Shown: positions 12,114 to 40,169 of the stretch, in pieces
Numbering within the stretch: position 1 is the first letter of the stretch
Layout: the number at the start of each line of letters is the position of its first letter
DNA from: a virus
Lineage: Duplodnaviria; Heunggongvirae; Uroviricota; Caudoviricetes
Virus record (IMG/VR): IMGVR_UViG_3300021426_000084
Strand: one strand, 5' to 3'
DNA: 64,000 nt
Notes under the pieces: generated by a model
Told to the model about the DNA's origin: nothing
Database searches by the model: none
Seen by the model: only the letters and a program-made list of their open reading frames with translations
Program-made: the position numbers and the translations under genes

Positions 12114-12331
12114 CTAAAGAGGACAAAGAGCAGTTGTTTTGGGACGAATTGGGTTTTGCGCTTGAAGAAGCCAAACGGCACAATAAAAACTTCTGTGAAT
12201 ACTGCCCCGCTTTTCCTGGTAAGTTTACAACAAGCGCTTGTCAAGGCCCAGAGAGCAGTTGTCGCAATGGAATTAAGTATCTATACGAGGTGATGACAAA
12301 TGACAAGAGAAGAACATTTAGCAGCTATTAA
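12110..12331 (+). CDS. small Cys-rich protein (C-x2-CPA family member 1)
   Basis: CEYCPAFPGKFTTSAC; paralogs at 51012, 51897 and 59865. Confidence 0.45.
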   Translation: MTKEDKEQLFWDELGFALEEAKRHNKNFCEYCPAFPGKFTTSACQGPESSCRNGIKYLYEVMTNDKRRTFSSY

Positions 12332-14228
12332 ACAGGCTGACCACGAATACTACGACCTGGATAATCCTACTCTGTCCGATGCAGAGTATGACGAACTTCG
12401 CCGCAGTTATATCGACCAGTACGGCGCCGAGGATTTGAACTATATTCCCGGCAATGCAACGGATGGCTTTGAAAAATTTCGCCATCCGACGCCGGTCACT
12501 TCCCTTGGTAAGTGGACCAAAGGCGTAGATAGCGAAGAAAATCTCAAGAAGAAAATTGATGAACTCTGGCCCGCCATCATCGAGCCTAAGTATGACGGCT
12601 TGACGGTTGTTGCTTATCCGAACGAGGACGGTTCCTGTAAATTTGTGACCCGTGGCTTGGGCGGCGAAGTAGGCGAAGTCCTGCCAAACTTCATTCCTGA
12701 GTACGAAGGGGCGGAAGTTAACAACTCCGGCTATCCGTTCCGCGGCGAAGTATTCATCACGCCGGCAAATTTCGAGAAGCTGAACCAGATGCTGATTGAA
12801 GCTGGCGAAGAGCCCATGAAGAACATGCGCAACGCGGCAGCAGGCTTATTGCGCCGTAAAGAGCGCAGCCCGTATCTGAATCTGCTCAGCTATATTGTCT
12901 ATGAAATCCCCGGCTTTGATGGCTCCATAGAAAAAGTAGAAGGGCTGTCATTCAAGACCAAATTCAATTTCACGGAATATCATTGGAAGGACACCGTAAA
13001 TGAAACGGTTGACTTCATTCCGCGGTGGTATGCAGATATCGTGACGAACGATACTTTTCCAATTGACGGAATGGTTATTAAATACCGTCTTGAGGGCGGC
13101 TTGAAGAAGTTTGGTAGCACGGGGCATCATCCCAAGAATGCCGTGGCCTGGAAGCCGGACAGAACTGTTTTCACGACGGTAGTCCGTGATGTTATCTGGC
13201 AGATGGGCCGAAGTAAAGCAACGCCCGTGGCTATCGTAGACCCCGTGGAAATCGACGGGGCGACAGTTACAAAAGCGTCTCTGCATAATGCGGAACAGAT
13301 TCGTAGGCTCGGCCTTAAAATTGGAGCTAAAGTCACAATTTTCAAGGCAAATGAGATAATTCCCCAAATCGGCGAGGTGCTTGAGCCGGGCGATAAGGAC
13401 ATTGTGCTTGATGTATGTCCTGCCTGTGGCGGCCCGTTGAAAACCGTCAATGGCCAGCAATTCTGCACAAATCCGGACTGCACTGAACGTATTGCTCAAA
13501 ACATCGCTTTTCTCGGTCAGAAAGATGTGCTAGACATCCCCGGCCTGTCTATTCAGACCGCCCGCAAGATGGTTGAAACATATCCTGACATTCTGGATTT
13601 GAAGCAGAACATCATCTTTGAGCTCAGCGTAGCAGAAATCAAGAAACTCCCCGGTTTTGCCGAAAAGTCAGCTCAAAAGTTATATGATGCTATTCAGGCC
13701 GCCCGCAAAGACGTAGAACTGCCGCGGTTTATCAAAGCACTCTGCATTCCTGGCATCGGTAATAATATCGGCAAACTTTTGGCCGATAAATATGGCAGCA
13801 TTGAGAAGATGATAGACTGGATTGAAGGCTCAAAAGAATGCAATACCAGTGATATTGTTGAGGAACAATTGAAGCAGATTAATGGCATCGGCCCAGTCGC
13901 CGCGAAAACCATCATGTCAGACGAATTTTGGGAAGCTGTGGAAACCATAAGACCTGTGTTCACTATTGCTCCGTATAAGAAGTCCGAAGTTGCGGTAGGT
14001 GAATTCGCCGGAAAAATTTTCGTGCTGACCGGCAAGATGGAGCATCCGCGCAGCTATTATGTCGAGAAAATCGAAGCGGCAGGTGGCAAGGAAGGTTCCT
14101 CTGTCAACAGCAAGACTGATTACTTGGTTATTGCTGACGTTAATAGCCAAAGCACTAAGGCAAAGAAGGCCCGTGAGCTTGGGACTAAGCTGATTTCTCC
14201 TGAAGAACTGGAAGAAATGCTGGAATAA
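12300..14228 (+). CDS. ligA: NAD-dependent DNA ligase
   Basis: KYDG adenylation motif, C-x2-C...C-x4-C Zn finger, HhH region and BRCT-like C-terminus; 642 aa. Confidence 0.85.
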   Translation: MTREEHLAAIKQADHEYYDLDNPTLSDAEYDELRRSYIDQYGAEDLNYIPGNATDGFEKFRHPTPVTSLGKWTKGVDSEENLKKKIDELWPAIIEPKYDGLTVVAYPNEDGSCKFVTRGLGGEVGEVLPNFIPEYEGAEVNNSGYPFRGEVFITPANFEKLNQMLIEAGEEPMKNMRNAAAGLLRRKERSPYLNLLSYIVYEIPGFDGSIEKVEGLSFKTKFNFTEYHWKDTVNETVDFIPRWYADIVTNDTFPIDGMVIKYRLEGGLKKFGSTGHHPKNAVAWKPDRTVFTTVVRDVIWQMGRSKATPVAIVDPVEIDGATVTKASLHNAEQIRRLGLKIGAKVTIFKANEIIPQIGEVLEPGDKDIVLDVCPACGGPLKTVNGQQFCTNPDCTERIAQNIAFLGQKDVLDIPGLSIQTARKMVETYPDILDLKQNIIFELSVAEIKKLPGFAEKSAQKLYDAIQAARKDVELPRFIKALCIPGIGNNIGKLLADKYGSIEKMIDWIEGSKECNTSDIVEEQLKQINGIGPVAAKTIMSDEFWEAVETIRPVFTIAPYKKSEVAVGEFAGKIFVLTGKMEHPRSYYVEKIEAAGGKEGSSVNSKTDYLVIADVNSQSTKAKKARELGTKLISPEELEEMLE

Positions 14229-14240
14229 GGAGGAATTTTC

Positions 14241-14495
14241 ATGTATGCAATAAAAGAGTGGGCAGATGAAATAAAGGATATTGTAGCTAAATATCCTACA
14301 GCTAAGTTTGACGACGAATGCGATGAGATACTTTGCGACAGCGAAGAAGTTGCAGTTTCCATGGCAAATGAAATCGAAGAACGCATGGAAGAATTATGCG
14401 TCAACTGTTCAGTTCATACTTGTTATTACAATTCCGAGGAAGACAAAATATCAGACCCAGAATCATATAACGTATGGGCTGTGTATATCATGTAA
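14241..14495 (+). CDS. hypothetical acidic protein
   Basis: SD ggaggaat. Confidence 0.5.
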   Translation: MYAIKEWADEIKDIVAKYPTAKFDDECDEILCDSEEVAVSMANEIEERMEELCVNCSVHTCYYNSEEDKISDPESYNVWAVYIM

Positions 14496-14521
14496 AAGTG
14501 GGTTATAAACAGGGGCACAGG

Positions 14522-14713
14522 ATGTCACAAGAGAATAGTAAGCCAAAATTTGAAGTCGACCAGCCAGTTCGTGTAAAAGCGACCGGCTATGTCGGCGAAG
14601 TATACAGCCGCATTCTGGATTTAGATGGTGATTCATATTGCTATAAGCTCATTCATGGTATTGACTATGAATGGTATAAAGAAAATGAGCTGGAAGCAGT
14701 ACAAGAAGCTTAG
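14522..14713 (+). CDS. hypothetical protein
   Basis: ORF 14474-14713, trimmed to ATG 14522. Confidence 0.4.
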   Translation: MSQENSKPKFEVDQPVRVKATGYVGEVYSRILDLDGDSYCYKLIHGIDYEWYKENELEAVQEA

Positions 14714-14729
14714 GAGAAAATGCTGTAAA

Positions 14730-15083
14730 ATGAAAATCATAACTGTTTCAAATAATGTATTTCGGGAAGAACTTATCGAGAAGGTTCGGGCTGAACTTGG
14801 TACAATGCGCCCTCATAGTAAGGCACTTGTTCTTCTTGACGGCAAAACTACTCCTTATAGTAGCAAAACGGTTCAAGTAGATGGGCATATAATTCGGTAT
14901 GCACGAATTGGGCAAACCCTGCCTGTGGCTTTACGCGGCGCAATGGCAGACGTTATTGCGATTGAAACAACATATCGGCTCCCTAAAGAAGCTGTAGCAA
15001 TGGCACTTGTTATATTAAATGACCATGCAAATGACCATGGAGTATTGATATGCCCGGAAGAACTGGAGGAAATGCTAAAGTGA
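14730..15083 (+). CDS. hypothetical protein ending in PEELEEMLK
   Basis: ATG 14730 with AGGAG upstream; C-terminal tail shared with ligA and the next gene. Confidence 0.45.
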   Translation: MKIITVSNNVFREELIEKVRAELGTMRPHSKALVLLDGKTTPYSSKTVQVDGHIIRYARIGQTLPVALRGAMADVIAIETTYRLPKEAVAMALVILNDHANDHGVLICPEELEEMLK

Positions 15084-15469
15084 GCGATAAGATAAAAGTA
15101 GGACAGGAATTGTACGTCATTCCTGTGGGCGGTTTAATACGCTCCTACGGGAATTATGTCCGTAAAGGTGTAGTTACCAAAGTTGGCCGCAAATACCTGT
15201 ATGTCGAAATTGAGGGCGTATATTATGGAGAACATGGTGCCCGATTCGATAAAGAGACTTTGCGCAGTGAATCAGAGTACGGCTCTCCTTGGATTGCGTT
15301 TCATTCAATGCAGGAAATTAAGGACAGAGAAGAAGCCAGCCGGCTCCGTGAAGAACTCCGAAAGTTCTTTGACTGGACTGGAAAGAGTCATAAGCTTACA
15401 CTAAAGCAGTTAAAAGCTATCGAGAAGATTATAAAATGCCCCGAAGAGTTGGAGGATATGCTGGAATGA
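15080..15469 (+). CDS. hypothetical protein ending in PEELEDMLE
   Basis: GTG 15080 overlaps the upstream stop (GTGA) with GGAGGA 7 nt upstream. Confidence 0.45.
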   Translation: MSDKIKVGQELYVIPVGGLIRSYGNYVRKGVVTKVGRKYLYVEIEGVYYGEHGARFDKETLRSESEYGSPWIAFHSMQEIKDREEASRLREELRKFFDWTGKSHKLTLKQLKAIEKIIKCPEELEDMLE

Positions 15470-15696
15470 TTAAGTCGTGGAAAACACGAGCCAGGTTAGA
15501 TATCTTGAAACTCAAGAGAAGACATTGCCGCTTCGGAGAAATGGGCATAAATGCCTTAGCCATAGGCACAAGACAAACAATAGCGCACAATCAGCCTCTT
15601 TCCTATATTCATATGAAGACGAAACGCAGAAGAGCTTATATTGCTGCGCGGATATTGCTAACCGGTTATGCTCATAAAGTTTGGAGGAAATACTAA
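15466..15696 (+). CDS. small basic protein
   Basis: ATGA overlap; R/K-rich. Confidence 0.4.
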   Translation: MIKSWKTRARLDILKLKRRHCRFGEMGINALAIGTRQTIAHNQPLSYIHMKTKRRRAYIAARILLTGYAHKVWRKY

Positions 15697-15987
15697 ATGA
15701 CAGAGTGGATACCAGGGTATGAGTCCATTGAGGCACACATACTTATTTCTGGAATAGAAAACAAGAATCTTCGACATTATAATCCAGATTGTAGTAAAAC
15801 AAAATGGCTTCCTTTCCCGCGTAGGATTGGAAAAACTAATATGCTTTTGGCAGAACTTAAAGAGCGCCGACATCTTCGGCAACTGCAACCGATATTATTT
15901 GTGCCGCGTAATTTCTATGCGACAGACATGAGAATACCGTTAGAACGCAAAGTGCTAACTGATTTGGCTTTAAGAAATTGGTGGTAA
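15697..15987 (+). CDS. hypothetical protein
   Basis: 96-aa ORF abutting the upstream stop. Confidence 0.45.
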   Translation: MTEWIPGYESIEAHILISGIENKNLRHYNPDCSKTKWLPFPRRIGKTNMLLAELKERRHLRQLQPILFVPRNFYATDMRIPLERKVLTDLALRNWW

Positions 15988-15992
15988 TAACA

Positions 15993-16235
15993 ATGACCAA
16001 ATTTGATGGTAAAGAATATCCAGCTAAACCGTTGAATACCCCCTGTTTTGAGAAAAAGCCTGTCAATGTGGAAAGTTTAGAAAAATCTTTTTCTAATACT
16101 GAAGACTTTTATGCGTTCGACGAAGCACAAATTGTAGACGAAAAGACTTTCTCCTATATCCTGGACGACATTATTAATCGTAATAGGGAAAGTCTGGTAA
16201 AATTATCGAGGAAGCAATGCAATGAACCAGGTTAA
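15993..16235 (+). CDS. hypothetical protein
   Basis: 80-aa ORF. Confidence 0.45.
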   Translation: MTKFDGKEYPAKPLNTPCFEKKPVNVESLEKSFSNTEDFYAFDEAQIVDEKTFSYILDDIINRNRESLVKLSRKQCNEPG

Positions 16236-16635
16236 GGCAGGCGATTTGGTTGGCACTATTGTTGCCGCCAGCGAAAAATATCATACAGCGTTAACTCCGC
16301 TAAGGCTGCAAGCGATGCTTTTCTTTATCCAGAAAGAGTCGTTGTGGCGCCGGTTTATGCCGGCGTTTGACGACGATATTTGCGCTTGGGACTTTGGACC
16401 AGTTGTACCTGACGTATATTATGAGTATAGTCACTATGCCAGCATTCCAATAATCAACGTCGAGGAGAAAGAAATCGACAAGGAGCTTAGGGAAATTATA
16501 GATTGTGTGGCATACAGATACAGCGGCATTGCAACATGGAGACTCGTGGAGGCAATGATAAAAGACAAGGCATATATTAAGGCCCGTACGAGAGGAGATA
16601 ACATCGTCAAATTGGAGGGGATGCTTTATGGCTAA
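16222..16635 (+). CDS. hypothetical protein
   Basis: 137-aa ORF. Confidence 0.5.
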   Translation: MNQVKAGDLVGTIVAASEKYHTALTPLRLQAMLFFIQKESLWRRFMPAFDDDICAWDFGPVVPDVYYEYSHYASIPIINVEEKEIDKELREIIDCVAYRYSGIATWRLVEAMIKDKAYIKARTRGDNIVKLEGMLYG

Positions 16636-16864
16636 GATTGAGAATCAATTCATCGGTATGAATGATGATACATTGGCAACAACGATGAAAGAGTATGAAG
16701 AATGGTGTGACACCGGATTCATTCCTGAAGGCGGCCCGCTCGCAAAAGCTCGCGACAAATATTGCGACGCTTATGATGTCCATGGATTGCTCATCATGGA
16801 AAAAGAGTTGCTTTATGCCGGCACAAAGCGGTGGTTGGAAACTAAAGAAAAGGGAATAAAATAG
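16628..16864 (+). CDS. hypothetical protein
   Basis: 78-aa ORF. Confidence 0.45.
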   Translation: MAKIENQFIGMNDDTLATTMKEYEEWCDTGFIPEGGPLAKARDKYCDAYDVHGLLIMEKELLYAGTKRWLETKEKGIK

Positions 16865-16880
16865 GATTGGAGAAAGCGCC

Positions 16881-17216
16881 ATGACTTACGCAAAATGCAT
16901 AACTATTAGCAAGGAAAAAGCAAAGTTTATCAATTATGCTTTAACTCATGAACCGAAATGCAAGGAAGATATGGTTATTGGGGAAGACAGTACGATTGTA
17001 AATTATGTGAACTTCCCCAATGGCTATTCGATGGATATTAAATGCTGCGGCGTCAAATTTGACCCAAGCACGAGTAATACGGCCTGGACAGAAGCTGTGC
17101 TATTTGATGAAAATGGGGTTGAGGTTGCACGCTCAGATGCCGAAGAACAGTATACAGGCAAATGGGAACTGAAAGATGATAATACAACTTACATTGTAGA
17201 TGTAATGGTTGCTTGA
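16881..17216 (+). CDS. hypothetical protein
   Basis: 111-aa ORF with SD ttggagaaag. Confidence 0.5.
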   Translation: MTYAKCITISKEKAKFINYALTHEPKCKEDMVIGEDSTIVNYVNFPNGYSMDIKCCGVKFDPSTSNTAWTEAVLFDENGVEVARSDAEEQYTGKWELKDDNTTYIVDVMVA

Positions 17217-17240
17217 GTAAGGAAAAGGAATGAAATAAGA

Positions 17241-17681
17241 TTGGACATCAATATTAACAACTTAAAGAAATATGATACCGAACATGCTAAAGCGGGCGAT
17301 ATGCTGATTTCAGCTTATCGTTCCAGCTATAGCAGCCGTTGGGCCTTTAGTCAACATATCATTAAATCTGTATCTGATAAACGCGGCGACATTACGTTTG
17401 ATAATGGAAAACGGTTTGATCGCCAAGGACGGAGATACGGCAGACAAAGGTACGATACCAGTAATGATGTGCTGCTGGAGGTCAATGAGGATAATGTGAT
17501 AGAGATTAACGCCTATGCAAAACATCAGTCTTTGGTGTTTAAGACACGTAAGGCCCTGGAGGCTCTACTCAAAAATGGATGCAGCCGGTTAGACGATATG
17601 CCAACAGAAAAGATTGAGCAATTCTATGAAGTGGTAAAAGATTTTGCAGGAGGGGAATCAAATGAACTATTGGAGTGCTAA
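17241..17681 (+). CDS. hypothetical protein
   Basis: TTG start after aaggaaaagga. Confidence 0.45.
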   Translation: MDININNLKKYDTEHAKAGDMLISAYRSSYSSRWAFSQHIIKSVSDKRGDITFDNGKRFDRQGRRYGRQRYDTSNDVLLEVNEDNVIEINAYAKHQSLVFKTRKALEALLKNGCSRLDDMPTEKIEQFYEVVKDFAGGESNELLEC

Positions 17682-18420
17682 GCAGCAAAATGCCGAACGT
17701 GCCAGACGGCGCACAGAGGAATTCGAAGCGAACTTTACGCCGTCAATGAACTATGCGTTGGTCAGCACTACCGTATATGGCGGCAAAGACCAGAATGTCA
17801 TCGGCAACCCATTTACCGATATCTGTGAAGAATTTGAAGTGGTACAGATGTCTACGGCCGAAGCCATTTATGAGCTAGGGAATAACAACTGCATTGCTCT
17901 GAATTTCGCGTCATATAAAAATCCGGGCGGCGCGTACCTGAATGGCAGCTGCGCGCAGGAAGAATCTTTGTGTCACGAAAGCTGGTTGTATAACATTTTG
18001 GCTCGATTCCAGAGCTATTATGACTGGAACAAAAAGAATCTGAATCGCGGCTTATATAAAGACCGCGCTCTTTACACGCCGGATGTATATTTTAGCGACG
18101 GCGAAAGAAATGCCATAGCTGACATTCTTACCTGCGCTGCCCCGAATCGCAGTATCATTGTCAAAGGATACACCAACTTTACGGAGGAAGAGAACTATAA
18201 AGTTCTGCATGACCGTATGCTGTTCATGTCCAAGATTTGTTCTTTGAAAAAGAAGGACACACTTATTCTCGGCGCATGGGGATGCGGCGTGTTTAAACAG
18301 GACCCGAAAATTGTGGCAAGACTCATTCGCAATACTACATGGCGCGGCGTAAAGAAAATCGTACTGGCTGTCATTGATAAGCCAACGTATGAAGTATTCA
18401 AGAAAGTTTTTGAGGAATAA
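17662..18420 (+). CDS. PARG-like macrodomain protein (DUF2263/TIGR02452-type ADP-ribose hydrolase fold)
   Basis: NFASYKNPGGAYLNGSCAQEESLCHESWLY matches the bacterial-type PARG signature (G-G..QEE..C(R/H).S.LY); ATG 17662 after gcaggagggg. Confidence 0.6.
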   Translation: MNYWSAKQQNAERARRRTEEFEANFTPSMNYALVSTTVYGGKDQNVIGNPFTDICEEFEVVQMSTAEAIYELGNNNCIALNFASYKNPGGAYLNGSCAQEESLCHESWLYNILARFQSYYDWNKKNLNRGLYKDRALYTPDVYFSDGERNAIADILTCAAPNRSIIVKGYTNFTEEENYKVLHDRMLFMSKICSLKKKDTLILGAWGCGVFKQDPKIVARLIRNTTWRGVKKIVLAVIDKPTYEVFKKVFEE

Positions 18421-18437: not shown

Positions 18438-19706
18438 GTGGCAGATATTCTATTGAAGAGTTTCTTTGAAAAATCGCGGTGGGAATCTGCCATTGATACG
18501 GGCGTAGCTAAACGTCTGGACAGATGCATGCTGAAAGAAATGTGTACTAAAGAAGGGCGCCTTGACCTTTACCATCGCATTCGTGATAACAAGTATTACA
18601 TCCGCCCACCGCATGAAGCACTTATCCCCAAGGATAACGGGGAATTTCGAACGGTTTACGTTAACGAAAATGAAGACCGAATTATCCTGTCCATCATCAA
18701 TGACATGCTGTTCGACCTGTATCCACAGAAAGTACATCCGGCCTGCCGTTCTTACCAGAAAGGTATCGGATGCGGCAAGATAGTGCAGGAGGCATCCAAA
18801 GTCCTGGCCGGTATTCATAGCAGCATCGTAGGCTACAAGGTTGACCTTAGTAAGTATTTCGACTCTGTACCTCGCCAGTATATCGATGAAGTATTTGATG
18901 ATGTCGAAAGTAAATTCGGCGCATCCAAAATCATCGATATCCTGCGTGAGTATTATCATACGGATATGGTATATAATCTGCAGAAAAAGCTGATTGAAAA
19001 ATACTCAAGCTTAAGACAGGGATGTGCCGTGGCCGCATATCTTGCCGATGCCGTTCTTTATGACATTGACGATTGCTTATCCAAAATGCCGGGTATTTAC
19101 TACGTCCGTTACTCCGACGACATTCTTATCCTGGGTGAACAAAACAGAACCGGAAAAGCCTTTGACAAACTCAGTGAACTTCTGACGCAGAAAGAGCTGA
19201 AGCTAAATCCAAAGAAGGTGGAAGTCCTGCAAAAAGACCGCTGGTTTAAGTTCCTGGGTTTCACACTGAAGGAAAATCATATCAGCCTGTCTAAGTCACG
19301 AATTAAGAGATTCCAAAAGGCAATTGATGAGCATACATTCAAAGGCAAGTCAAGGAATGAATACCAGCTGGTCAAGAATGTGTTCCGCGCCTTATATCAG
19401 GGCGAAGATGATTACAGTTGGGGAACTAGCGTATTGCCCATCATTAATGTTCAGAAGGACATCGATACCCTGAATTCTTATGTCATGGATGCTATTCGGG
19501 CGGCCATAACCGGGAAAACCCGTATTGGCGGCCTTGGCGTCACAATAAATCAAAGAGATTGTACTATTGCCAGAGGCAAGGGGCGTAACGTTAAGATGAA
19601 TCGGATAAAAAATCCTGTATTGGAATCTTATCTGAGTATCGGTTGCATGCGTAATGCCCTTCTAACTTCGAAAGAGGCTTATTTGACTTTGGCTATGTCA
19701 ATCTGA
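18438..19706 (+). CDS. reverse transcriptase (free-standing, group-II-intron-like/unclassified lineage)
   Basis: RT motifs 1-7: IPKDNGEFRTV, SYQKGIG, GYKVDLSKYFDSV, LRQGCAVAAYLAD, YYVRYSDDILIL (YxDD), LNPKKVEV, FKFLGF; about 110-aa thumb-like C-terminus; GTG start after aggaggg. Confidence 0.85.
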   Translation: MADILLKSFFEKSRWESAIDTGVAKRLDRCMLKEMCTKEGRLDLYHRIRDNKYYIRPPHEALIPKDNGEFRTVYVNENEDRIILSIINDMLFDLYPQKVHPACRSYQKGIGCGKIVQEASKVLAGIHSSIVGYKVDLSKYFDSVPRQYIDEVFDDVESKFGASKIIDILREYYHTDMVYNLQKKLIEKYSSLRQGCAVAAYLADAVLYDIDDCLSKMPGIYYVRYSDDILILGEQNRTGKAFDKLSELLTQKELKLNPKKVEVLQKDRWFKFLGFTLKENHISLSKSRIKRFQKAIDEHTFKGKSRNEYQLVKNVFRALYQGEDDYSWGTSVLPIINVQKDIDTLNSYVMDAIRAAITGKTRIGGLGVTINQRDCTIARGKGRNVKMNRIKNPVLESYLSIGCMRNALLTSKEAYLTLAMSI

Positions 19707-25372: not shown

Positions 25373-25624
25373 AAAACTCTCATGAGAAGGATAGCCAGAC
25401 TTGTTATTCTTTAACAACGCAAAAGGCCGCCCGAAGGCGGCCAGCTGCGTGTTAGATAATAAAAAAAGAAAATATTTCAATCCACTCCCAGTTTTCATAC
25501 TGGGAGACAACAACCGTGATGGTTGATGCCTTAATAGTAGCAAATATTTTTCTTCTTGTCTAGCAGGAATCCCAAAGGTTACGCTAGAATAGATTTAAGA
25601 AGTGCACAAAAGGAGGAATTAGTT

Positions 25625-25930
25625 ATGAAAAAGATTATTAACGGCAAAAAATATGATACCGAAACAGCCAAAGAACTCGGCAGTAGCTGGAATGGCTTAA
25701 GCCCGACAGACTTCAACTACTGTTCGGAAAAGCTTTACCGGAAAAAGACCGGCGAGTTCTTCTTGTATGGGAAGGGTGGTGCGCGCTCCCAGTACGCAGA
25801 ACAGGTAGGGAATGCCTGGTGCGGTGGCGAAGACATCACTCCCTACACAGAAGACAAGGCTAAACGTTGGTGCGAGAACCACTTATCTGTGGACGAGTAT
25901 GAAGCTATCTTTGGTGAAGTTGAGGAGTAA
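25625..25930 (+). CDS. small protein, paralog of 27320-27610
   Basis: MKKIINGKKYDTETAK... and shared ending EYE(A/S)IFGEVEE; SD aaaaggagg. Confidence 0.55.
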   Translation: MKKIINGKKYDTETAKELGSSWNGLSPTDFNYCSEKLYRKKTGEFFLYGKGGARSQYAEQVGNAWCGGEDITPYTEDKAKRWCENHLSVDEYEAIFGEVEE

Positions 25931-26407
25931 CTGCTTAGTAACTGAAAACGTACTCAGGTATGTAAAAATGTGTAGCAATATGCTAAAGACTCAAGAAATC
26001 CATTGAGTTAGTTCGTGCTGACTTTATAGCAGTCGGAATGGCTGGAAATAAACCAGAGGCGGTTGAAACAGTCCGTCTAACTACGGGATAGCACCCTGAT
26101 GGTAGCCGTTGGACAGTGGTAAATGCGAGAACCAAGCAAAGGCTGGCGAGCCTAAACGCAAAACAATATCACGAAAGGAGAAAGCTACTAGATGTAATCG
26201 GCAGAATATCATAAACAAGATACTGTCGATATGTACCGATGGCTAGTCGGGAATTTACGTCTTCGGAGTATCACACAAACGTTAGTAGCCTGTCTTTCGG
26301 GACGGCGAGAACGGATACGATGAACAAGGAACTACAAATCGTGAGATTGTAGCGATACATCTTGATATAGGCATATTTGTCTATATTTTAAGTAGCAGTA
26401 ACTGCCG

Positions 26408-26953
26408 ATGGGGAACTATAGTTATATGTGCAAGTGCGGACAACCAATCCGCGCAGGTGAAAAGGTTCACCTCATGCATGTTCGCCATGGAGAAGTGTTG
26501 GGTCACGCAGAAGGCGAGTTTGACGGCTATGGCAGTGTCATAGAAAACGAAGGTTTTAATAATGCCTCATTTGATAAGTGGGATGGCGTTAGCAAAAATG
26601 ACCCGAATTGCCATGATGAAATTATGAAATCTCGTTACAACTTCAATGATTCTGAACATGTATGCCAAGAGAAAATGAAAATTTATCAAGACGAACCAGT
26701 CAGCATTGAAGAATATTGCACTGCATTGAGTATTGCAACAAAATGGCCCGATGCAAATATCAAAAGTTTCAACGACGCTTGCGCAGCTTACAGAGAACTG
26801 GAAGATGCACCTAAAGTTACTCCGCAGAGCGGCGTGGCAGCTTATCATAAAGCTTGTTATGATGAAGCCGTAAAGCAGAATGCTGTAGATATTGTTCCAT
26901 CTGAAGCCGACCCGAATCAAGGTTGGGGAGAGCCGCAGAAAAGATTCATGTAA
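26408..26953 (+). CDS. hypothetical Cys/His-rich protein
   Basis: 181-aa ORF. Confidence 0.45.
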   Translation: MGNYSYMCKCGQPIRAGEKVHLMHVRHGEVLGHAEGEFDGYGSVIENEGFNNASFDKWDGVSKNDPNCHDEIMKSRYNFNDSEHVCQEKMKIYQDEPVSIEEYCTALSIATKWPDANIKSFNDACAAYRELEDAPKVTPQSGVAAYHKACYDEAVKQNAVDIVPSEADPNQGWGEPQKRFM

Positions 26954-27043
26954 CGCAAAAGGCCCCCAAAAGGGGGCCAACTGCGTGTTAGGTAACAAAA
27001 AAAGAAAGTGTTTCAATCCACTCCCGGTCAAAGCCAGGAGACA

Positions 27044-27205
27044 AGCCGCCTATTCGGCGGTAAACATGATATTCCAAATTCATAGATTTCTAAGCCGCCT
27101 ATCCGGCGGGAAAAAGGAACCACCAATTTGATAGATTTCTAAGCCACCTACTCGGCGGTAAACAAAACCAAGAAAAATATAAATTTCTAAGCCGCCTATG
27201 CGGCG
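27044..27205. repeat. four direct repeats of a 16-bp GC hairpin (gccRcctaYNcggcgg) at exact 49-bp spacing; copies 2-4 share the 5' flank atttctaa
   Basis: copies at 27044, 27093, 27142 and 27190; AT-rich variable spacers of about 25 bp. Confidence 0.7.
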
Positions 27206-27319
27206 GTGAACTGGAATATCATGATATAATGATATCAGAAATTTTTTTCTTTGTCTAGCAGGAGTCTTAAAGGATATGCTAGAATAAAGAAAGAAGATTG
27301 TGTAAAAGGGGGATTAATT

Positions 27320-27610
27320 ATGAAGAAGATTATTGGTGGCAAAAAGTATGATACGGATACGGCGAAGCGCCTGGCAGGTTACGACAACATCGGAAAGAAA
27401 AATATCGCTTCCTGTACCGATTTTGATTATTGGTGTACTTCGCTATACCGGAAGAAAACCGGTGAGTATTTCATTTACAAGCAAGATACAGCTTGGAATG
27501 ATAGAGAAGAAACCATTACCCCCGCTACGGAGGAAGAAGCCAAGGCGTGGGCTGAAAATTACTTAGACGGCGATGAATATGAGAGTATTTTTGGTGAAGT
27601 AGAAGAATGA
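27320..27610 (+). CDS. small protein, paralog of 25625-25930
   Basis: MKKIIGGKKYDTDTAK...; duplicated upstream region as well. Confidence 0.55.
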   Translation: MKKIIGGKKYDTDTAKRLAGYDNIGKKNIASCTDFDYWCTSLYRKKTGEYFIYKQDTAWNDREETITPATEEEAKAWAENYLDGDEYESIFGEVEE

Positions 27611-30289: not shown

Positions 30290-30364
30290 TCCCCAGTAGC
30301 TCAGCTGGTAGAGCATCTGACGATTAATCAGGTGACGCAGGTTCGAGTCCTGCCTGGGGAGCCA
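30290..30364 (+). tRNA. tRNA, anticodon unresolved (loop CGATTAA lacks U33)
   Basis: 7-bp acceptor stem tccccag/ctgggga, D-arm gctc/gagc, T-loop ttcgagt, CCA encoded. Confidence 0.6.
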
Positions 30365-31018
30365 ATTTAATATTAACAAACAGAAAACTATGGCAAAGCA
30401 TACCTCGGTTATAAAACGCAATATCATGCGTCCGAGAATGGCCCCGTAATTGATACTGACAAACTGCAGTAGATATGCCTGCAGCGAGTACGTCCTTTCT
30501 TAGCGATAAGAGTAGGGTGATGCGTAAAGTGTAAGCGCATGTATCTTGAGGTTATGTGCATGCAATGCCGAGCGTTAAAGCAGGAACTGATAGGGTTTCA
30601 TAAGTGTATGAGTACAAATGGTGTGCTCCGCTGCCGCCAGTAAAGACTAAAGCGTGATAAACTTTAGGTACACGAGGTATTTATCAAGATGGAACTTTGC
30701 CGTGATGTCTTCAAAAGAGACTATAACTGTCAGTCGCCGTATGAGTAGCCCAAGGCAATGATACAGATCAAGTATGTAGCTTTATAGCAATCTATAATTC
30801 TGAATGACGGGTGAAAGTTGGAAGTCTTAATCTTCTCGGAGCTAGAAAGAGGCAAGAAGCGCGTGTCGACGGGCGCGTTGCTCAGACTTGTCTTCTCCGT
30901 GGCTGAATAAATGCAGAGCATCAAGTTGTGTACAGGGAAACCTGATGTTTTGCCGTAGTTTTGTGTTTGTTAATAACACAACTAAAAATGCGCCCAAGCG
31001 GCGCGGTTACAATTTTGT

Positions 31019-31094
31019 GTACCTTTGGTGTAATTGGTAACACGGCAGTCTCCAAAACTGTAAGATGTTGGTTCGAGTCCAGCAGGGTATGCCA
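31019..31094 (+). tRNA. tRNA-Trp (CCA)
   Basis: cloverleaf with anticodon loop ctCCAaa; CCA end. Confidence 0.75.
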
Positions 31095-31099
31095 TCTAT

Positions 31100-31173
31100 G
31101 CCGGTATAGCTCAATGGGGATAGAGCACCGAAACGTAACCTCGGCGACTCAGGTTCGAGTCCTGATACTGGCT
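31100..31173 (+). tRNA. tRNA or tRNA-like, anticodon unresolved (loop ACGTAAC)
   Basis: acceptor gccggta/tactggc, D-arm gctc/gagc, T-loop ttcgagt; no encoded CCA. Confidence 0.45.
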
Positions 31174-31556
31174 TAGCTAATTTAGTCTTACTGGTCTGAT
31201 CAACCGGTTAGGCGAAACACTACATGTAGTGCCGCGTAAAAGCGGTGTCCTTCGCGGTCGAGGGACATTAAAATTGACGGCCGCCTGTTTACGTCCCAGT
31301 ATCAGGTTAACGTCTGATCAGAGGCATACATTTTTCAGGGCGCCCACCGCAGCGCGGCACCACCGTTAATTATACGCCTAATGCCAAATGCGGTTAACTT
31401 GAATAATCCCCGTAAGGGATTAGATATATTGTTGTTAGACCCAGACGGTCGGCGACAAAGCACTGGTCACTATCCGACCACTCCGTAACTAAAATCCGTC
31501 AGCTACCGGAGGGAAACAGGACAGGTCCTGGGTAAGACATAACTGCCCACGCAAAA

Positions 31557-31632
31557 GCGGAAATAGCTCAGTTGGTAGAGCTTCTGCCTTCCAAGCAGAA
31601 TGTCGCGAGTTCGAGTCTCGTTTTCCGCTCCA
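31557..31632 (+). tRNA. tRNA-Gly (UCC)
   Basis: acceptor gcggaaa/tttccgc; anticodon loop ctTCCaa; CCA. Confidence 0.75.
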
Positions 31633-31638
31633 TATTAT

Positions 31639-31725
31639 GCCCCTGTCGCATAGAGGCCGATTGCACCGGTTTTGTAAACCGGTTCCGAAAAGGACACGTC
31701 AGTTCGAATCTGACCGGGGGCTCCA
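31639..31725 (+). tRNA. type II (long variable arm) tRNA, anticodon unresolved (loop TTTGTAA, apparent UGU)
   Basis: acceptor gcccctg/cgggggc, T-arm gtcag-ttcgaat-ctgac, 15-nt variable arm, CCA. Confidence 0.5.
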
Positions 31726-31773
31726 TAAAAACAAAAAAGCAAGACTATAAAAACATAAGGAAGGTAACAAACA

Positions 31774-32046
31774 TTGACATCTCTTGAATGGAATGACCTT
31801 GCCTCAAAATTCTATAGCTTCAAATCCGAGGCAGAAAAACATGGTTTCTATGTGCCAGAACTGGCCGGCATGGAAAACAGCCTGAATATCATTCGTCCCT
31901 ACCAGGAAAACGAAGAACTGCATAAGAAAACGGCAAGTGGATTTGTATCTCGTATGCAGAGTAAGGCTGATGATGTTAAGGCCTGGGCGTTGGCAAAGTT
32001 CAGCGCGCCGAAGTATAATGACGATGATGAGCTGGTGCATGCCTGA
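31774..32046 (+). CDS. hypothetical protein
   Basis: TTG start after taaggaaggtaa. Confidence 0.5.
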   Translation: MTSLEWNDLASKFYSFKSEAEKHGFYVPELAGMENSLNIIRPYQENEELHKKTASGFVSRMQSKADDVKAWALAKFSAPKYNDDDELVHA

Positions 32047-32288
32047 TGTTTAATTTTTCTAAATACGATATGCTGACTCTACTTGATGAGTATGTCACAT
32101 ACATTATGGCAACATGCGCAATTTTTACGGTAACAATCTTCGTCGCAATGGTAAAACATTCCCTTGAAACGGCGGTGATAATCGCTATCATGATTTTTAT
32201 CATAGGTCCAGCCGCGGGTTTCTTAGGTAGAACTATATATGACTTTATTTTAGAGAGGTTTGGTGGCAATGGTAAAGACTTATTCTAA
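32046..32288 (+). CDS. small membrane protein
   Basis: two hydrophobic helices. Confidence 0.45.
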   Translation: MFNFSKYDMLTLLDEYVTYIMATCAIFTVTIFVAMVKHSLETAVIIAIMIFIIGPAAGFLGRTIYDFILERFGGNGKDLF

Positions 32289-32513
32289 CACTAAAAAGGC
32301 AAAAGCGCTGTTTTATCCGAAGGCTAAGTGTTGCGCACACACCAATGTTATGATTGGCGGCGGCCGTTTGATGGGCCGCTACGTAGGATCGACCGGTAAA
32401 CGATGATAGCGTTAATGCTTGCTGTCGTGGTCTGGTGTTGTACGGATAACGGCTACGCAGCATTAGCAGCGTTCTTTGCTTGCTTAGCTTTGGAAAAATA
32501 AATGAGGAAAAAC

Positions 32514-33140
32514 ATGAACAATTGTCTTAAAAAGGAAATTATCTGCAGCTATAAACCTGGCGATTGGTTCGATAGGATTCCACTTGCGCATCTTTGCGAC
32601 GGCGGTATAACAGCAATCAATGTAGACCGCCGTTTTGGAAAGTCCACATTCGTCGCCAATGCAGCCAAAAAGATTTTGTCGCAAGATATGGCTGACATCA
32701 TTGTTGTTGAGTGTGGCGGCAAAAACAGAATAAAACTCATGAAAACGGTCTTTAAGGAAGTTTTCGGCGATAATTTCGAAAAACAGTACCCGCAGATTGA
32801 GATAAGGCCTCATGGCAATAGAGCACTAAGTAAGCGGCGTACAGTAATATTTATTGATGAATTTTCGTATACGGCAACCGACGATGACATCCATGAAATT
32901 CTGAAAAGCGAGCTCATCAGCGATGCACAAACCTGGATTCTTCTGGATACTTCTTATGAAGGTTCAACCGATATGAAAGACAAGAATCCGTTCGCTGGCT
33001 TACTAGAAATGCCCTTCGTAAGAACCTACGAAGTGGTTGGTCGCATTCCTGAAGAATGTCTCGCTTATTATAGCGATGAACAGCAGCAAGCGATTAAAAA
33101 GCGTCAAGAAGCATTTCATCTCCAGTGTTTCATGTTTTAA
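32514..33140 (+). CDS. P-loop NTPase-like protein
   Basis: Walker A-like VDRRFGKSTF and Walker B-like VIFIDEF. Confidence 0.5.
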   Translation: MNNCLKKEIICSYKPGDWFDRIPLAHLCDGGITAINVDRRFGKSTFVANAAKKILSQDMADIIVVECGGKNRIKLMKTVFKEVFGDNFEKQYPQIEIRPHGNRALSKRRTVIFIDEFSYTATDDDIHEILKSELISDAQTWILLDTSYEGSTDMKDKNPFAGLLEMPFVRTYEVVGRIPEECLAYYSDEQQQAIKKRQEAFHLQCFMF

Positions 33141-33223
33141 ACAAATCCCCCTCCATGTGACCGGCTAGGACGAGGCCATAGAATATCGTCCACTTTATTA
33201 AAATTCTGTTATAGGAGAGAAAA

Positions 33224-33451
33224 ATGACAGTATATATGGTTATTCACCAAACTTTGTGCGATGATTATGACCAGGACGTTATGGGTGTTTTTTCAAACGC
33301 CGAAGCCGCCCAGGCGTGCTATGACGACTGGATTAATGAATACGGCCTTGAGGGTTGTGACAATGGCGCGTATTACAATGATGGTGAACATCGCTTAGAA
33401 ATTCACTCATATAAAATTGAGGAAACTTACGAGCGAGATTCAGATTTTTAA
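33224..33451 (+). CDS. small acidic hypothetical protein
   Basis: 75-aa ORF with SD aggagagaaaa. Confidence 0.45.
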   Translation: MTVYMVIHQTLCDDYDQDVMGVFSNAEAAQACYDDWINEYGLEGCDNGAYYNDGEHRLEIHSYKIEETYERDSDF

Positions 33452-34102
33452 ATTTTGCGACCGACACTAATGTCGGCCATAAAACATGCGTGACCTGACT
33501 GCTGGTTGCCAAGAGAACCATGCAGCGAATAAAGAATGCGAAGAAGACTGACGTCATTCATCGCAAGCCTCGGAGAGCCCTGAAAGAAACTTGGCCTGTG
33601 GCAGAAATCTCCAATGAGGACACCGTAAACGCAAAATGAATTACGGTACAATCCGGCCCTAGAGAACAAGCCGGATAGACGCAAAGACCCTTACGGGTCT
33701 GAAAGATTATAGGAATAAGTGGGTCATCACCAAACCACCTATAACTGACGTTAGGCGCAGCGGAAAGACAAGTGCGATAGATGGTATGCCCAAGCCGAAT
33801 AAAAGTGAGGTCGTTCCTTATCGGAGCGAAGAAAAGTAGAGGCTTAGTCAGCACGGCGACAATGCAAAGAAAAGTTCGTGTAAAGCCGCGTTGTAAAATC
33901 AAAAGATTCAGCCCAGACCAGGCTCATAGCAGGAGGGGTTGACGCGCAATAATGACTTCATACCTTCTGGTATGGTCGCTGGACAAGGAAAAGTCTAAAA
34001 ACCCGGCACGAGAGAGGCTACACCGATGCTGAGTAGCTGAGCTGTTTGAGACGAGCAGTCATCCCGTGACGGCAGGATGTAAAATGAAGCCGCCCCTATA
34101 AT

Positions 34103-34185
34103 GAGGCAGTAGCTTAAATGGCTAGAGCAGACGGGAAAGCAAATGGGGCTTTCTTATGATGGTGGTTCGACTCCTCCCTGCCTCC
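34103..34185 (+). other. tRNA-like element (perfect acceptor pair, D- and T-arms, non-canonical anticodon region)
   Basis: gaggcag...ctgcctc acceptor pair; T-loop ttcgact; the middle 33 nt does not form a standard anticodon arm. Confidence 0.4.
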
Positions 34186-34198
34186 CCTATATCATACA

Positions 34199-34269
34199 TC
34201 CCCAAAGCTCCTCCGGCAGGGCTCGTAAGGCTACGGCCTGCGGCGAAGGTTCGAATCCTTCTTGGGGAT
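34199..34269 (+). other. tRNA-like element (acceptor pair plus T-arm, no canonical D/anticodon arms)
   Basis: tccccaa...ttgggga; gaagg-ttcgaat-ccttc. Confidence 0.35.
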
Positions 34270-35996
34270 ATCATGCTCATAGTCTGGGGGACACCGGCCG
34301 GTAGACAGGTTCGATTCCTGTAATGGGCAAAAACAAAATGCTTTCACGGAAAGTGTGCTCACCGCGAAAGAAGTTTTAGCCGCAGCAGACCGCACACCCT
34401 GGTAAATACGGCAAAAACGATGTTTCCCGATATCAAAGAATCGGGCATCAATGACTGTGGATGCGTATAAATAGACAGTCAGCTTGAGTCACCGTGGACC
34501 CCGGATACCCCAAAAGGAGTATGCCGGCTAACGCCTAGCCGAAATGGCGGGCGGCCCTGTGGGGCGCGATCCACGACACAAAAGCTTTCCTGCAGGCGGT
34601 GGGTTAACCTAGCGTATAGAAGGGGCTCCATTACCCCTGAGACAAAAGTCTCGAAGAGATGACCATTGAAGAAGGGTCTCCATTAACCCTGGCTGTAACC
34701 AGAATAGGCCAACCGTGTTTTCGGGCTCGCATCGTTATGAGCGTCCCGATTACCCGGCGCCAACAGCCGAAGAGATGACCTTTATCGGAGCGTTCGCTAT
34801 CGGACAATTACTGGGGAAGTAAGAACTAAAGGCCACGGTTTTTAGCACCCAGAATAACGACGCGAAGGCATTCCTTTCGGTGGAGGTATACCGAAGAACA
34901 ATATGAAACCTGGGCCGTCCCGATAACGCCATAAAGTACAAATGGTAGCTCGGTCAAACGGTAGCAAGGTTGCACCAAGCGTACCTGGATTACCTTCGCC
35001 TGGACGGACTAAAGTACACGGTCTATCAATTTAAGGGCGATAACAGGCACGAAGGCGATTTAGCCCCGGACAAGGCGAAAAACTGTTTAGTAGGCACCGA
35101 TTACTACTTAATAAGACAGTCGGGAACAGTGAAGACTCACTCTAAACAGGCTAGATGAGCATGGGTATCGCCCATGCCGAAGTTATCGGCCACTTCGCTG
35201 AAGACGACCGATGTGTTTGCGGGACGACCGCAACTGGGAGTGCATCCTCTCAGGATAAACCTGCAGAAGATACCTGTCCGAAACAGGATAGGGAAACCGG
35301 TGGCCAAGGCAATAATCCGGTAAACACCGATATATGTAGGACTCCCCTGCGGGGCGAGTAAGTTCATCGGTGGCCGCAAAAAGAAAACATCTCATAAGCG
35401 AGAGTCCGGTCATGAAAGCTAATCCCTTTCAGGCTCTCCCGATGCTGCTTATCTTTTCGGGCATTAAAAACACCAGACCTCGTAAGCGAAGACAGAGAGG
35501 ACGCTCTCGTTCAAATCGGTGAAGCTTGCCATCACCTATGTACAAAAAGCCTTGCCATGTAGAGCGAGCATGATGCTGCTGTAGAGTAGGTCGGGCATCA
35601 AAGATTTTAGACCTCGTAAGCAAAGACAGAGGAAACGTCCTCGTTCAAATCGGTATGAAGCTTACCCCAGATGACGGGCATTTGCCAAAGCTTGGATGGG
35701 TTAATCCGACATAGCGCTGCTACACTTCGGGCGCTAAATTAATCACACAACTGCTTGTATAAGTGCGTGTATGACTGCCGTGGAGGGGCTGCGCGTGATG
35801 GGAGAGGTTCTGCCTGATAGTGACCAAAAGAGTTCAACTACCGTGAGTCCCACGGGGAAACAACAAGCCCTGTACCTTACGAAACAGGCATGGCGCCGCT
35901 TTATGATAGTTGTTCGGGCGCTAAAAACCTGCACTGGCAACTTCATCTTTCATTGTCAGTAAAAGCGTTTGATAACCCGACCCGAAAGGGTCATAT

Positions 35997-36399
35997 GGGG
36001 CTGTAAAGGTTTCGACAGGATATTGAAGCCGTAAGATTCGCAGGCCGATGGTTATGAAGCCTAACTCATTAACCGCTAAATTCAACTGACGAAGCTGAAT
36101 ATCGTCTCGCTGCCTAATCTGCCTTAACGGTAGATTGGTTAGCCCCTATCGTATCACTAGCTGTGAGCAGGGCGATAGGTTTCAAATAAACACAGCAAAA
36201 CGTCAGGAGGCCCGCTCGACGTAAACAACACGGGGAGTTTTCCTGCTTTCTCAAAAGCAGGTGGTGGAGGTGTAGACCATTGCATCGTTGTTCGGCTGGT
36301 TACACCCTAGAGAATGGCGCTCTTAAAAATGCCTATTGCGATAATGTCTTACAGGTGGATGTATTTTGGACAGGAGTTCGATTCTCCTCAGCTCCACCA
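35997..36399 (+). ncRNA. ssrA: tmRNA (ssrA)
   Basis: 5' ggggctgtaaaggtttcgacagg and 3' ggacaggagttcgattctcctcagctccacca match tmRNA tRNA-like domain consensus; internal tag frame ends ...DEAEYRLAA-TAA. Confidence 0.8.
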
Positions 36400-36582
36400 T
36401 CGTTTCAACGAGGTTAGCGTCTCGAAGAAGCGGATTGAGAAGCTAAAATCAGCCATATCGGCTGATTGAAGTAAATCTGTGATTCTGCAGAATCTCTGGA
36501 AGCTTGCGCCAGACTTGGAATACAGCAAGACAGGTTTACTTCAGTGAACCGATATGGAAAGTAAAAATAGGGGGTACATATC

Positions 36583-36918
36583 ATGACAATTGAAGAGTTT
36601 TCTGAAAAGATAAAACTCAAAGAAGAAAACGTAGGACGATTAAAAGAATACATCAAACAGGCAGATAGAATGGACTCGGTTGTATTTTGGTATCGCAAAA
36701 CGGAAGAATACATGGGCAATCATGGTTACGCCGAAGGCGACAATAGTTTTTCCGTTGCTATTAAAGATAATAGCGGCCTCTTTGGCCCTGATTTTAATGA
36801 GTTAAAGACGCATTATCTTCAGATATTAGAAGACGAATTAGCTAAAGCTGAAAATGAACTGAAAGCCATGAAAGAGAAAAAGATAAAAATAGAAGAGTGG
36901 CTTTCTGAAGAATTATGA
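36583..36918 (+). CDS. coiled-coil hypothetical protein
   Basis: 111-aa ORF with SD aaaatagggggt. Confidence 0.5.
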   Translation: MTIEEFSEKIKLKEENVGRLKEYIKQADRMDSVVFWYRKTEEYMGNHGYAEGDNSFSVAIKDNSGLFGPDFNELKTHYLQILEDELAKAENELKAMKEKKIKIEEWLSEEL

Positions 36919-37472
36919 ACAAGACAGTAAAGTTATATCTTCTCGGTGGTACTGCTGTCGTAGACTTTGTTTATTCGGCAACATCACCAATTATTCATAT
37001 ATATTTCATAAGTCTGATAAGTTCCAGCGTTTTGGCCATGGCCAATATCCTGACCACCGCTTTAGCAGCAGGTGTAAATGCTTCGATTCAGTCTGACAAA
37101 CTTAAGGATTTTTATCGGCATCATTTTCTCTGGATAATTACAATAGATATTATCTGCTTCGCGCTTATCAGTTTCGAAGGTATATCTATACCGGAAGTCA
37201 GGTTTCTCGGCTTAGCAGTTTTAAATGCTGTGTCATCAACACTCTGGTTTACGGTAATAAACGACGCGATTAATCATCAAATTGAAGGCGATAGATTGAC
37301 AAAATGGAATAGCTTATCTAAAACGGTTAACCTTACAGCCGCCCTCGCCGGCAGCGTAATCGCGATAATCTTTACAAATATCGGCGTAGAGTATTGTATC
37401 GCGGCCCAGTGCATAGCAAATCTTGTCATGGGTGCAACTGATTGGCTGGCTTATAAGAGGATAAGATATTGA
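36915..37472 (+). CDS. integral membrane protein (about 5 TM helices)
   Basis: hydrophobic throughout; ATGA overlap. Confidence 0.55.
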   Translation: MNKTVKLYLLGGTAVVDFVYSATSPIIHIYFISLISSSVLAMANILTTALAAGVNASIQSDKLKDFYRHHFLWIITIDIICFALISFEGISIPEVRFLGLAVLNAVSSTLWFTVINDAINHQIEGDRLTKWNSLSKTVNLTAALAGSVIAIIFTNIGVEYCIAAQCIANLVMGATDWLAYKRIRY

Positions 37473-37618
37473 TTAATCTGCTTGATTTTATTATATACTT
37501 TTTTATTTTCATCACGTTACTGTGTATAATAAAAGCCACTATTGTTCTTGGCTTCACAATAACTTTTCCGGCAATTTTGATGTTTGTAGCTATTGTTTTG
37601 GCAATGATGGAGGAAGAA

Positions 37619-37818
37619 TGAGTAAAAGAAATTTACGCATTGGCGATAATGCTTATCTGGCTAATTGTGAAGACTGGTCAAATAGCTATTATCCTTGCAA
37701 AGTCATCAAGGTAAGGGATGACAACACGTATGACTTGTACGAACCTAGTATTGGCAAAACTCATTACGGTGTTCATCGTGATGCTATTGTGGATCAGATT
37801 GAATTCGATGCCGGATGA
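37619..37818 (+). CDS. small hypothetical protein
   Basis: ATG 37619 after ggaggaaga. Confidence 0.45.
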
Positions 37819-37845
37819 TGAGATATTAAAAGGGGATAGAATTAC

Positions 37846-38094: not shown

Positions 38095-38219
38095 TGGAGA
38101 AAAAATCGAATGATAGCAATAGATGACAGTTTTGTGGCGGCCATGCTTATATTCGCCTTCGCAATGATTTGGGTAATAGCGATTGGAGCTGTATCCATGT
38201 TGAATGATGAAGATAGAAC

Positions 38220-40160: not shown

Positions 40161-40169
40161 TATTATTAT

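Follow-up and report, generated by a model that had tools for sequence, protein, structure and literature searches.

A ligA-derived gene junction in a very large phage probably marks, and may mediate, homologous recombination and is unlikely to be a common docking tail

Three consecutive genes in a 64,000-nucleotide (nt) stretch of the Caudoviricetes record IMGVR_UViG_3300021426_000084 (the whole stretch is hereafter called the window), namely the NAD-dependent DNA ligase gene ligA and two small open reading frames (ORFs), ORF4 and ORF5, end in one short junction sequence that gives their proteins a PEELEEML-type C-terminus. The reading we favour, with a probability of roughly 0.6, is that this sequence derives from ligA, works as a translational-coupling junction and marks homologous recombination, which it probably also mediates, and that it is no common docking tail. 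On this reading the motif of 27-30 nt is the ligA 3′ end, combining the last helix of the BRCT domain with the Shine–Dalgarno (SD) sequence GGAGGA and the spacer for the next gene, whose start overlaps the stop (ATGA or GTGA). In this uncultivated phage lineage of ~250-330 kb, the junction also ends the two unrelated small genes ORF4 and ORF5, which lie in the variable region behind ligA, and its 3′ half initiates several neighbouring small genes. The direct repeats would be footprints of homologous recombination, and probably substrates too: recombination between junction copies would insert, delete or relocate small gene cassettes, with each event keeping the upstream ORF closed by a PEELEEML-type ending and providing the gene behind it with SD, spacer and start.

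The window carries three copies of CCNGAAGARYTGGARGAWATGCTRRAR, at 14199, 15054 and 15440 (Table 1), each of which enters a stop codon. A degenerate 27-nt pattern, searched with up to three mismatches on both strands, matched at these positions only, with a mean of 0.00 expected from 100 shuffles; the pattern was built from the copies themselves, so that this count is partly circular, and the same family was recovered by an independent repeat search of the window (D5/D11, 31 nt, 68-84% identity). The motif is real and non-random. The common tail of LigA (ending at 14228), ORF4 (15083) and ORF5 (15469), which a first reading of the letters alone (the original prediction) had described, is present in all three as stated, and the motif count it had proposed places the full pattern at three gene ends and nowhere else in the 64 kb. 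Profile comparison of the hhalign type found the three proteins alike over their last 9-13 residues only; one short sequence therefore ends unrelated adjacent genes.

At copies 2 and 3, GGAGGA lies 9 nt ahead of the next start inside the upstream ORF, and the start overlaps the stop as GTGA (15080) and ATGA (15466), which is the geometry of coupled junctions (start over stop, SD 5-10 nt upstream). The overlapping GTG and ATG starts had been predicted correctly; the predicted SD distance of 7-9 nt applies at its upper end to these two copies and fails for LigA, where the GGAAGA of copy 1 is not a ribosome-binding site (RBS), as the LigA stop is TAA and a separate GGAGGA (14229-14234) serves the ATG at 14241. 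The coupled geometry is present at the LigA copy of 8 out of 10 distinct relatives (the exceptions are L044 and L058) and is lacking at that of the window. On the sequence evidence, the motif junctions are probably translationally coupled.

Table 1. Genes, motif copies and half-copies behind ligA in the window
Feature	Position	Strand	Remarks
NAD-dependent DNA ligase (LigA)	12300-14228	+	642 aa; ends ..LISPEELEEMLE before stop
Motif copy 1	14199..14228	+	Last 9 ligA codons and TAA stop (PEELEEMLE)
84-aa gene G	14241-14495	+	14229..14243 = GGAGGA + 6 nt + ATG; mobile cassette with own RBS
Degenerate half-copy TAGGAGAAAATGCTgtaaaATG	14711..14732	+	Intergenic; ORF4 initiation region
ORF4	14730-15083	+	117 aa; ends ..LICPEELEEMLK before stop; half-motif upstream, full motif at 3′ end
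Motif copy 2	15054..15083	+	PEELEEMLK; GGAGGA 15065-15070; ORF5 GTG 15080 overlaps TGA stop
ORF5	15080-15469	+	129 aa; PF24203 Phage_ProQ_C_like; ends ..IKCPEELEDMLE before stop
Motif copy 3	15440..15469	+	PEELEDMLE; GGAGGA 15451-15456; ORF6 ATG 15466 overlaps TGA stop
Half-copy TTGGAGGAAATACTaaATG	15681..15699	+	Initiates ORF7 (15697-15987); read out of frame by upstream ORF6 (..VWRKY before stop); fourth D5 member
Half-copy TTGGAGGGGATGCTttATG	16612..16630	+	Initiation region of the ORF at 16628; gives the SocA/Panacea-like protein its tail KLEGMLYG

The LigA copy appears to be the native one. The Pfam BRCT match (PF00533) covers residues 569-640 of 642 and thus includes the tail. With phmmer, the segment kakkarelgtklispeeleemle aligned with KLEKARALGVPTLTEEELYRLLE, the end of the LigA BRCT structure of Thermus filiformis (1l7b), pairing ispeeleemle with LTEEELYRLLE and reaching the last residue. 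All 11 related contigs examined encode a LigA with the tail PEELExM[LI]x; of its 35 codon cells off the consensus, 25 are synonymous and 10 nonsynonymous. Judged from sequence, the LigA PEELEEMLE forms the final BRCT helix and is native and structural rather than a free tail. GenBank phages gave no DNA match, and the best LigA protein match was 33% identical.

The recombination reading is carried by the comparison with relatives. About a dozen related contigs were found via homologues of ORF4 and ORF5, most of them in ENA, Logan and JGI assemblies; only three close contigs came from IMG/VR. They span 249-327 kb, and the window itself, with nearly all ORFs on the + strand and an array of transfer RNA (tRNA) and transfer-messenger RNA (tmRNA) genes, reads as part of a very large phage. 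With A for ligA, B for the ORF4 type, B′ for an ORF4 paralogue and G for the 84-aa gene, the order behind the ligase is A-G-K-B-E-F-C in the window, A-B-E in L004, A-B-F-J-C in L057, A-J-B-C in L046, A-E-P-.-B′-C in L001, A-E-F-B′-C in L047, A-E-F-J-C in L054, A-E-G in L050, A-E-C in L053 and A-.-E-F-B in L058/59, and L055 has two B copies. The first gene after ligA can thus be B, E, J, G or a 75-aa gene (L058), and G, J and the B-type ORF4 (L058/L059, L055) change position between genomes. Gene G is 95% identical to L050 6362-6628, where it follows ORF5, in a pair of genomes whose LigA are 73% identical. An apparent swap of ORF4 and ORF5 in L001 was rejected, as the L001 gene is the paralogue B′ (49-52% identity, tail CPEMMGALLQ).

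The breakpoints fall on the motif. In blastn comparisons of the window with six relatives, the aligned blocks ended at 14221-14231, 14702-14714, 15052-15079, 15452-15462 and 15691, all on motif copies; at copy 2 the ends were 15052, 15077 and 15079 (against L001, L047, L044 and L046), and at copy 3 they were 15452 and 15462. Where synteny with L004, L001 and L047 breaks at the motif, a stretch of 25-30 nt in the relative matches two copies of the window, and L004 9628-9657 aligns to both the half-copy at 14711..14732 and copy 1. The LigA-ORF5 junction of L001, L047 and L005 consists of the left flank of copy 1 and the right flank of copy 2, as expected from recombination between two repeats or from the reverse insertion. 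The flanked gene is present, absent or replaced among the relatives, and the empty site holds a single copy. For the copies of the ligA 3′ end, this comparison points to copying by recombination. Near another junction, L044 (6630-6660) shows a scar at the start of ORF6, ATGATTAAG TGA TAAAATCATGG, following a 93-aa gene that replaces ORF5; here two variant ORF6 5′ ends appear to have been joined in tandem.

What is shared is the DNA and not a peptide, because copies occur out of frame and between genes. In L046, a 127-aa gene whose window homologue lies 40 kb off (55543-55899) has been relocated to the region after ligA. It is followed by a complete 23-nt motif, at which the gene stops at the TGA inside CCTGAAG, so that the PEELEEMLNA frame is not its own, and GGAGGA-N8-ATG is still supplied to the next gene. 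The 3′ half of the motif, YTGGAGGAAATGCT, matched seven times in the 64 kb with up to two mismatches (1.24 expected), and six of the seven matches fall within 14208-16625. Those clustered matches sit directly before a start codon, except for the copy in the LigA tail, and at some sites they lie out of frame or between genes. In the form YTGGAGGAAATGCT + 2-5 nt + ATG/GTG, the half-motif provides the translation start signals for five or more small genes located from 14.7 to 16.6 kb, and SD contexts elsewhere vary in a survey of ~100 predicted window starts. The half-copies at 14711, 15681 and 16612 were missing from the original list; confinement to gene junctions holds for the full pattern, found at three gene ends only, and partly for the half-motif, with six of seven matches clustered and five directly before starts. 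The SocA/Panacea-domain protein at 16222-16635 (antitoxin-like, PF13274, E = 2e-12) is encoded in this variable block too.

The earlier suggestion of a coupling element at the RNA level, with the peptide fixed incidentally, is close to right for the 3′ half, where SD, spacer and start precede several genes in other frames or between genes, and leaves the 5′ half and the copy number unaccounted for. None of the four folded junctions showed RNA structure, and a structured RNA element was rejected on these fold z-scores (-0.66 to +0.38) and on the absence of any Rfam match at E <= 1 in 13500-17500. A promoter/terminator cassette of the PeSL (promoter-early stem-loop) type known from T4-type phages was rejected as well, because neither part was found at the motif copies: there was no promoter-like site inside them, the nearest being one weak site (9/12) at 15410-15437 that abuts copy 3 (14 such sites in the region, with 9.2 +/- 3.0 expected), and no terminator at them on the + strand.

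Several observations weigh against the recombination reading. The breakpoints do not by themselves prove an active role of the motif, because selection for intact genes after random illegitimate joints would also leave breakpoints at gene ends. Two copies from one genome generally resemble each other no more than orthologous copies do, which gives little indication of ongoing gene conversion; concerted evolution of the copies was considered and is seen in L001 only, the sole pair with 24 identical nt. Some exchanges occurred off the motif, for example at a breakpoint inside ligA (~13774-13957). In L060 the ORF5 tail PEELENMLQ persists with the SD lost (GGAAAA) and no overlap at the stop, which would fit some constraint at the peptide level, or a recent change. 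Finally, the ORF4 tail may predate the copying and be partly native, because it is conserved, as CP[AE]ELE[EAGK][MIL]L in 16 close homologues, and because the paralogue B′ shares the form ..LICPE....LL. with it. Even so, we infer that the arrangements arose by recombination between repeats and not through selection acting on random joints.

ORF4 itself has no Pfam or PHROG match and belongs to no known family, and a 334-kb contig encodes a protein identical to that of the window. Its AlphaFold2 model is of low confidence (pLDDT 63) and places the tail as a strand and a terminal helix; Foldseek of this model against the PDB returned nothing at E <= 0.001 and no BRCT match. The candidate explanation of ORF4 as a hidden BRCT domain or a duplicate of the LigA C-terminus was dropped as rejected or unsupported, given that hhalign aligned the last 13 residues only, the model is poor and Foldseek was null. 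The tail is probably kept under purifying selection, as a terminal helix. On L055 (3158-4454), two ORF4-type genes stand ~0.6 kb apart, with the tails CPAELEAML and CPEELEGMLK and two other small genes between them.

A stronger version of the recombination reading, which we put forward only tentatively, is that the motif is itself active and portable, serving at once as an RBS and as a recombination site compatible with coding sequence, so that small genes flanked by two copies would loop out as circles and reinsert at any copy. If so, phages of 250-330 kb would have a homology-driven, integron-like cassette system right behind ligA, in which every landing cassette would be closed by a PEELEEML-type ending and would pass a start signal to its neighbour.

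A shared docking peptide, in which PEELEEML would be a short linear motif binding one hub (a clamp, a polymerase or an SSB-like protein, after the single-stranded DNA-binding protein, SSB), was the first option of the original prediction and now seems improbable. A docking motif should be conserved in the homologues of each carrier, and the status of the tail differs among the three proteins, which leaves a common docking tail unsupported: LigA and ORF4 keep it and ORF5 does not. The Pfam and PHROG profiles of ORF5 stop at about residue 118-120, leaving the tail as a lineage-specific extension of 9-10 residues. The tails of 18 homologues include CPEELEDMLE, SPEELEALPQ, SPEEMEESLQ, SSEELEGKPK, SPEELEDKSK, PLEKPEDTSE, EEMS and EENVDR, and 14 distant ProQ_C-like genes from other viral contigs all end in ..QL+RI..II[ND]E without it. 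The original prediction had itself named homologues that lack the tail and keep the SD as evidence against its proposal, and close ORF5 homologues are just that, with the tail swapped (EEPEGKPK, EELEDKSK, EEMS) and GGAGG and the ATGA overlap retained. At the ORF5-ORF6 junction, 9 of 33 nt differ between the window and L047, eight of them nonsynonymously, with GGAGG, spacing and ATGA intact; over all ORF5 tails, 18 of the codon cells off consensus are nonsynonymous and 6 synonymous. In L050, the ORF5 tail EEEFSCTQQKSGLTK arises from out-of-frame reading of the RBS and first codons of the 84-aa gene that follows. The ORF5 tail therefore looks like an unselected by-product. On the other hand, the purifying selection in LigA, the retention of P, E3, L4, E5, M7 and L8 through synonymous changes in the B-type ORF4, the tails SPEELEEMLQ and SPEKLEEMLE of the divergent ORF5 homologues P0012 and P0014 (64-67% identity) and the tail of L060 kept without an SD all speak for a docking peptide. 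Against these stand the buried position of the LigA segment, as the terminal helix of a BRCT fold common to bacterial LigA, the loss or replacement of the ORF5 tail, and the same DNA lying out of frame or untranslated at other junctions. By inspection, the tails are also unlike the clamp-binding motif (QL[SD]LF) and SSB-type tails (DDDIPF).

Independent convergence would hold that the needs of a C-terminal helix (N-cap S/C-P-E-E) and of an in-frame GGAGGA alone gave the nine residues three times. Some observations favour this. The L-E-E/D core is dictated by the RBS, because an in-frame xTG GAG GAx must read so, and other window proteins accordingly end in LE[EG] or EE (KLEGMLYG, ALEEE, MMEEE); TTGGAGG is a frequent SD context in this phage, and B′ natively has CPE....LL. 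We nevertheless give it little credence as a full account, as the copies also share the spacer AATGCT and the 5′ CCNGAAGAR, though neither constraint needs them, the full motif of L046 is out of frame, and the ORF5 tail is an extension gained in one subclade. The coding pattern is moreover rare: a scan of 2.9 million viral contigs gave 19 loci. Those in unrelated contigs fall within unrelated proteins, and a C-terminal position, at the end of LigA, is seen in relatives of this phage only, on which ground a widespread phage motif was rejected.

A translational operator, with the shared UUGGAGGAAAUGCU-N-AUG kept alike so that one regulator (a RegA-like repressor or a small RNA) could co-regulate the small genes, is likewise doubtful. 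Six half-motif copies within 2.4 kb, each right before a start save the one in the LigA tail, and a spacer conserved beyond the needs of the SD would suit it; no regulator was identified, there is neither RNA structure nor an Rfam family, orthologous junctions drift freely outside GGAGG, and the conserved 5′ half and the breakpoints would go unexplained.

Around ligA, further variation was seen. The ligase gene is mosaic: compared with L044 (3572-5500), a 327-kb JGI contig, the 5′ 1.5 kb of ligA (12300-14228) is 70% identical and the stretch from ~13957 through ORF4 is 89% identical, and the breakpoint inside ligA mentioned above follows from this shift. The gene upstream (12280-12331) ends in ..YEVMTK with an ATGA overlap in L001 and L004; in the window one A has been lost from an A-run (ACAAATGAC vs ACAAAATGA), and the frame therefore extends by nine codons (..TNDKRRTFSSY) and overlaps ligA by 32 nt, a further labile C-terminus at a coupled junction. 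LigA and the 84-aa gene are in frame and 15 nt apart in the window, which would permit a read-through fusion via a TAA-reading tRNA; this was taken as coincidence, because the L044 spacer is one base shorter and out of frame.

Elsewhere in the window, ARAGORN predicted 12 tRNA-like genes and a tmRNA (35997-36399, tag DEAEYRLAA) within 30290-42476. Two of the tRNAs are of the suppressor type, with the anticodons tta (39861-39953, reading TAA) and cta (40170-40246, reading TAG), which may indicate stop-codon recoding in part of the phage. A microbial-type PARG/macro-domain protein (17662-18420, PF10021) is directly followed by a reverse transcriptase (18438-19706, RVT_1, E = 7e-25). The region 25416-27290 holds a 77-nt repeat (25416 and 26952, 87% identical, with the GC hairpin AAAAGGCCGCCCGAAGGCGGCC) and a 60-nt repeat (25532 and 27227), and four tandem 49-nt units, each beginning with the hairpin AAGCCGCCTATTCGGCGG, occupy 27043-27237. 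Behind each repeated block stands one of two paralogous small genes (25625-25930 and 27320-27610, ending in YEAIFGEVEE and YESIFGEVEE), an arrangement that looks like repeated regulatory cassettes of the PeSL type.

Several known systems come close to the ligA-derived junction. In translational coupling, the stop and start overlap (ATGA or GTGA) and the SD lies inside the upstream gene. The motif agrees with this in its 4-nt overlap, in GGAGGA 9 nt upstream within the last codons and in the in-frame SD that forces L-E-E/D; what sets the motif apart is its repetition over 27 nt between unrelated genes, which ordinary coupled junctions do not show. The SSB C-terminus and the tails of T7 gp2.5 and gp4 are acidic docking tails that are disordered, conserved across homologues and bound by a defined partner. 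The endings described here resemble them as acidic and hydrophobic C-terminal peptides on replication-related proteins, but ORF5 does not conserve its ending, and in LigA the copy belongs to a fold. That copy is like helix alpha3 at the C-terminus of bacterial LigA BRCT domains (1l7b, 1dgs, 2owo) to the last residue, whereas any BRCT likeness is absent from ORF4 and ORF5 beyond the tail. Neighbouring phage proteins with identical C-terminal peptides call for caution in annotation and motif hunting, as such peptides can be left by junction DNA and need not be interaction motifs.

The nearest precedent is gp67/gp68 of mycobacteriophage Island3, in which an inserted small gene shares C-terminal residues and DNA with the upstream gene: the C-terminal 18 residues of gp68 and ~50 bp are common to gp67, a relative that lacks gp68 has one copy, and the authors proposed homologous recombination at short boundary sequences (PMC3029335). 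In comparison, the present case has three full copies and at least three half-copies that include the SD, the spacer and the overlapping start of the next gene, a source copy that is a structural BRCT helix, and many arrangements in about a dozen relatives. It offers a clean multi-copy example of how very large uncultivated phages shuffle small accessory genes in their variable regions, with one 30-nt junction combining the essential end of the upstream protein, translation signals for the next gene and recombination homology. The PeSLs are mobile regulatory cassettes of T4-type phages that border shuffled ORFans and carry expression signals along (PMC2839356; PMC4122927). As in that system, repeated junction signals cluster in a hyperplastic region of small ORFans and flank genes that are present, absent or relocated. 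However, PeSLs are intergenic, ~100 bp long and made of a sigma-70 promoter and a stem-loop terminator (PMC2839356), whereas the junction motif is ~30 nt long, lies in coding sequence, acts at the level of translation and has no promoter, terminator or structure; mini-circles belong to the PeSL side. The motif works like a PeSL, yet stands outside the PeSL family. If the repeats do drive excision and insertion, the PeSL and boundary-sequence idea would be extended from transcriptional to translational, in-frame signals.

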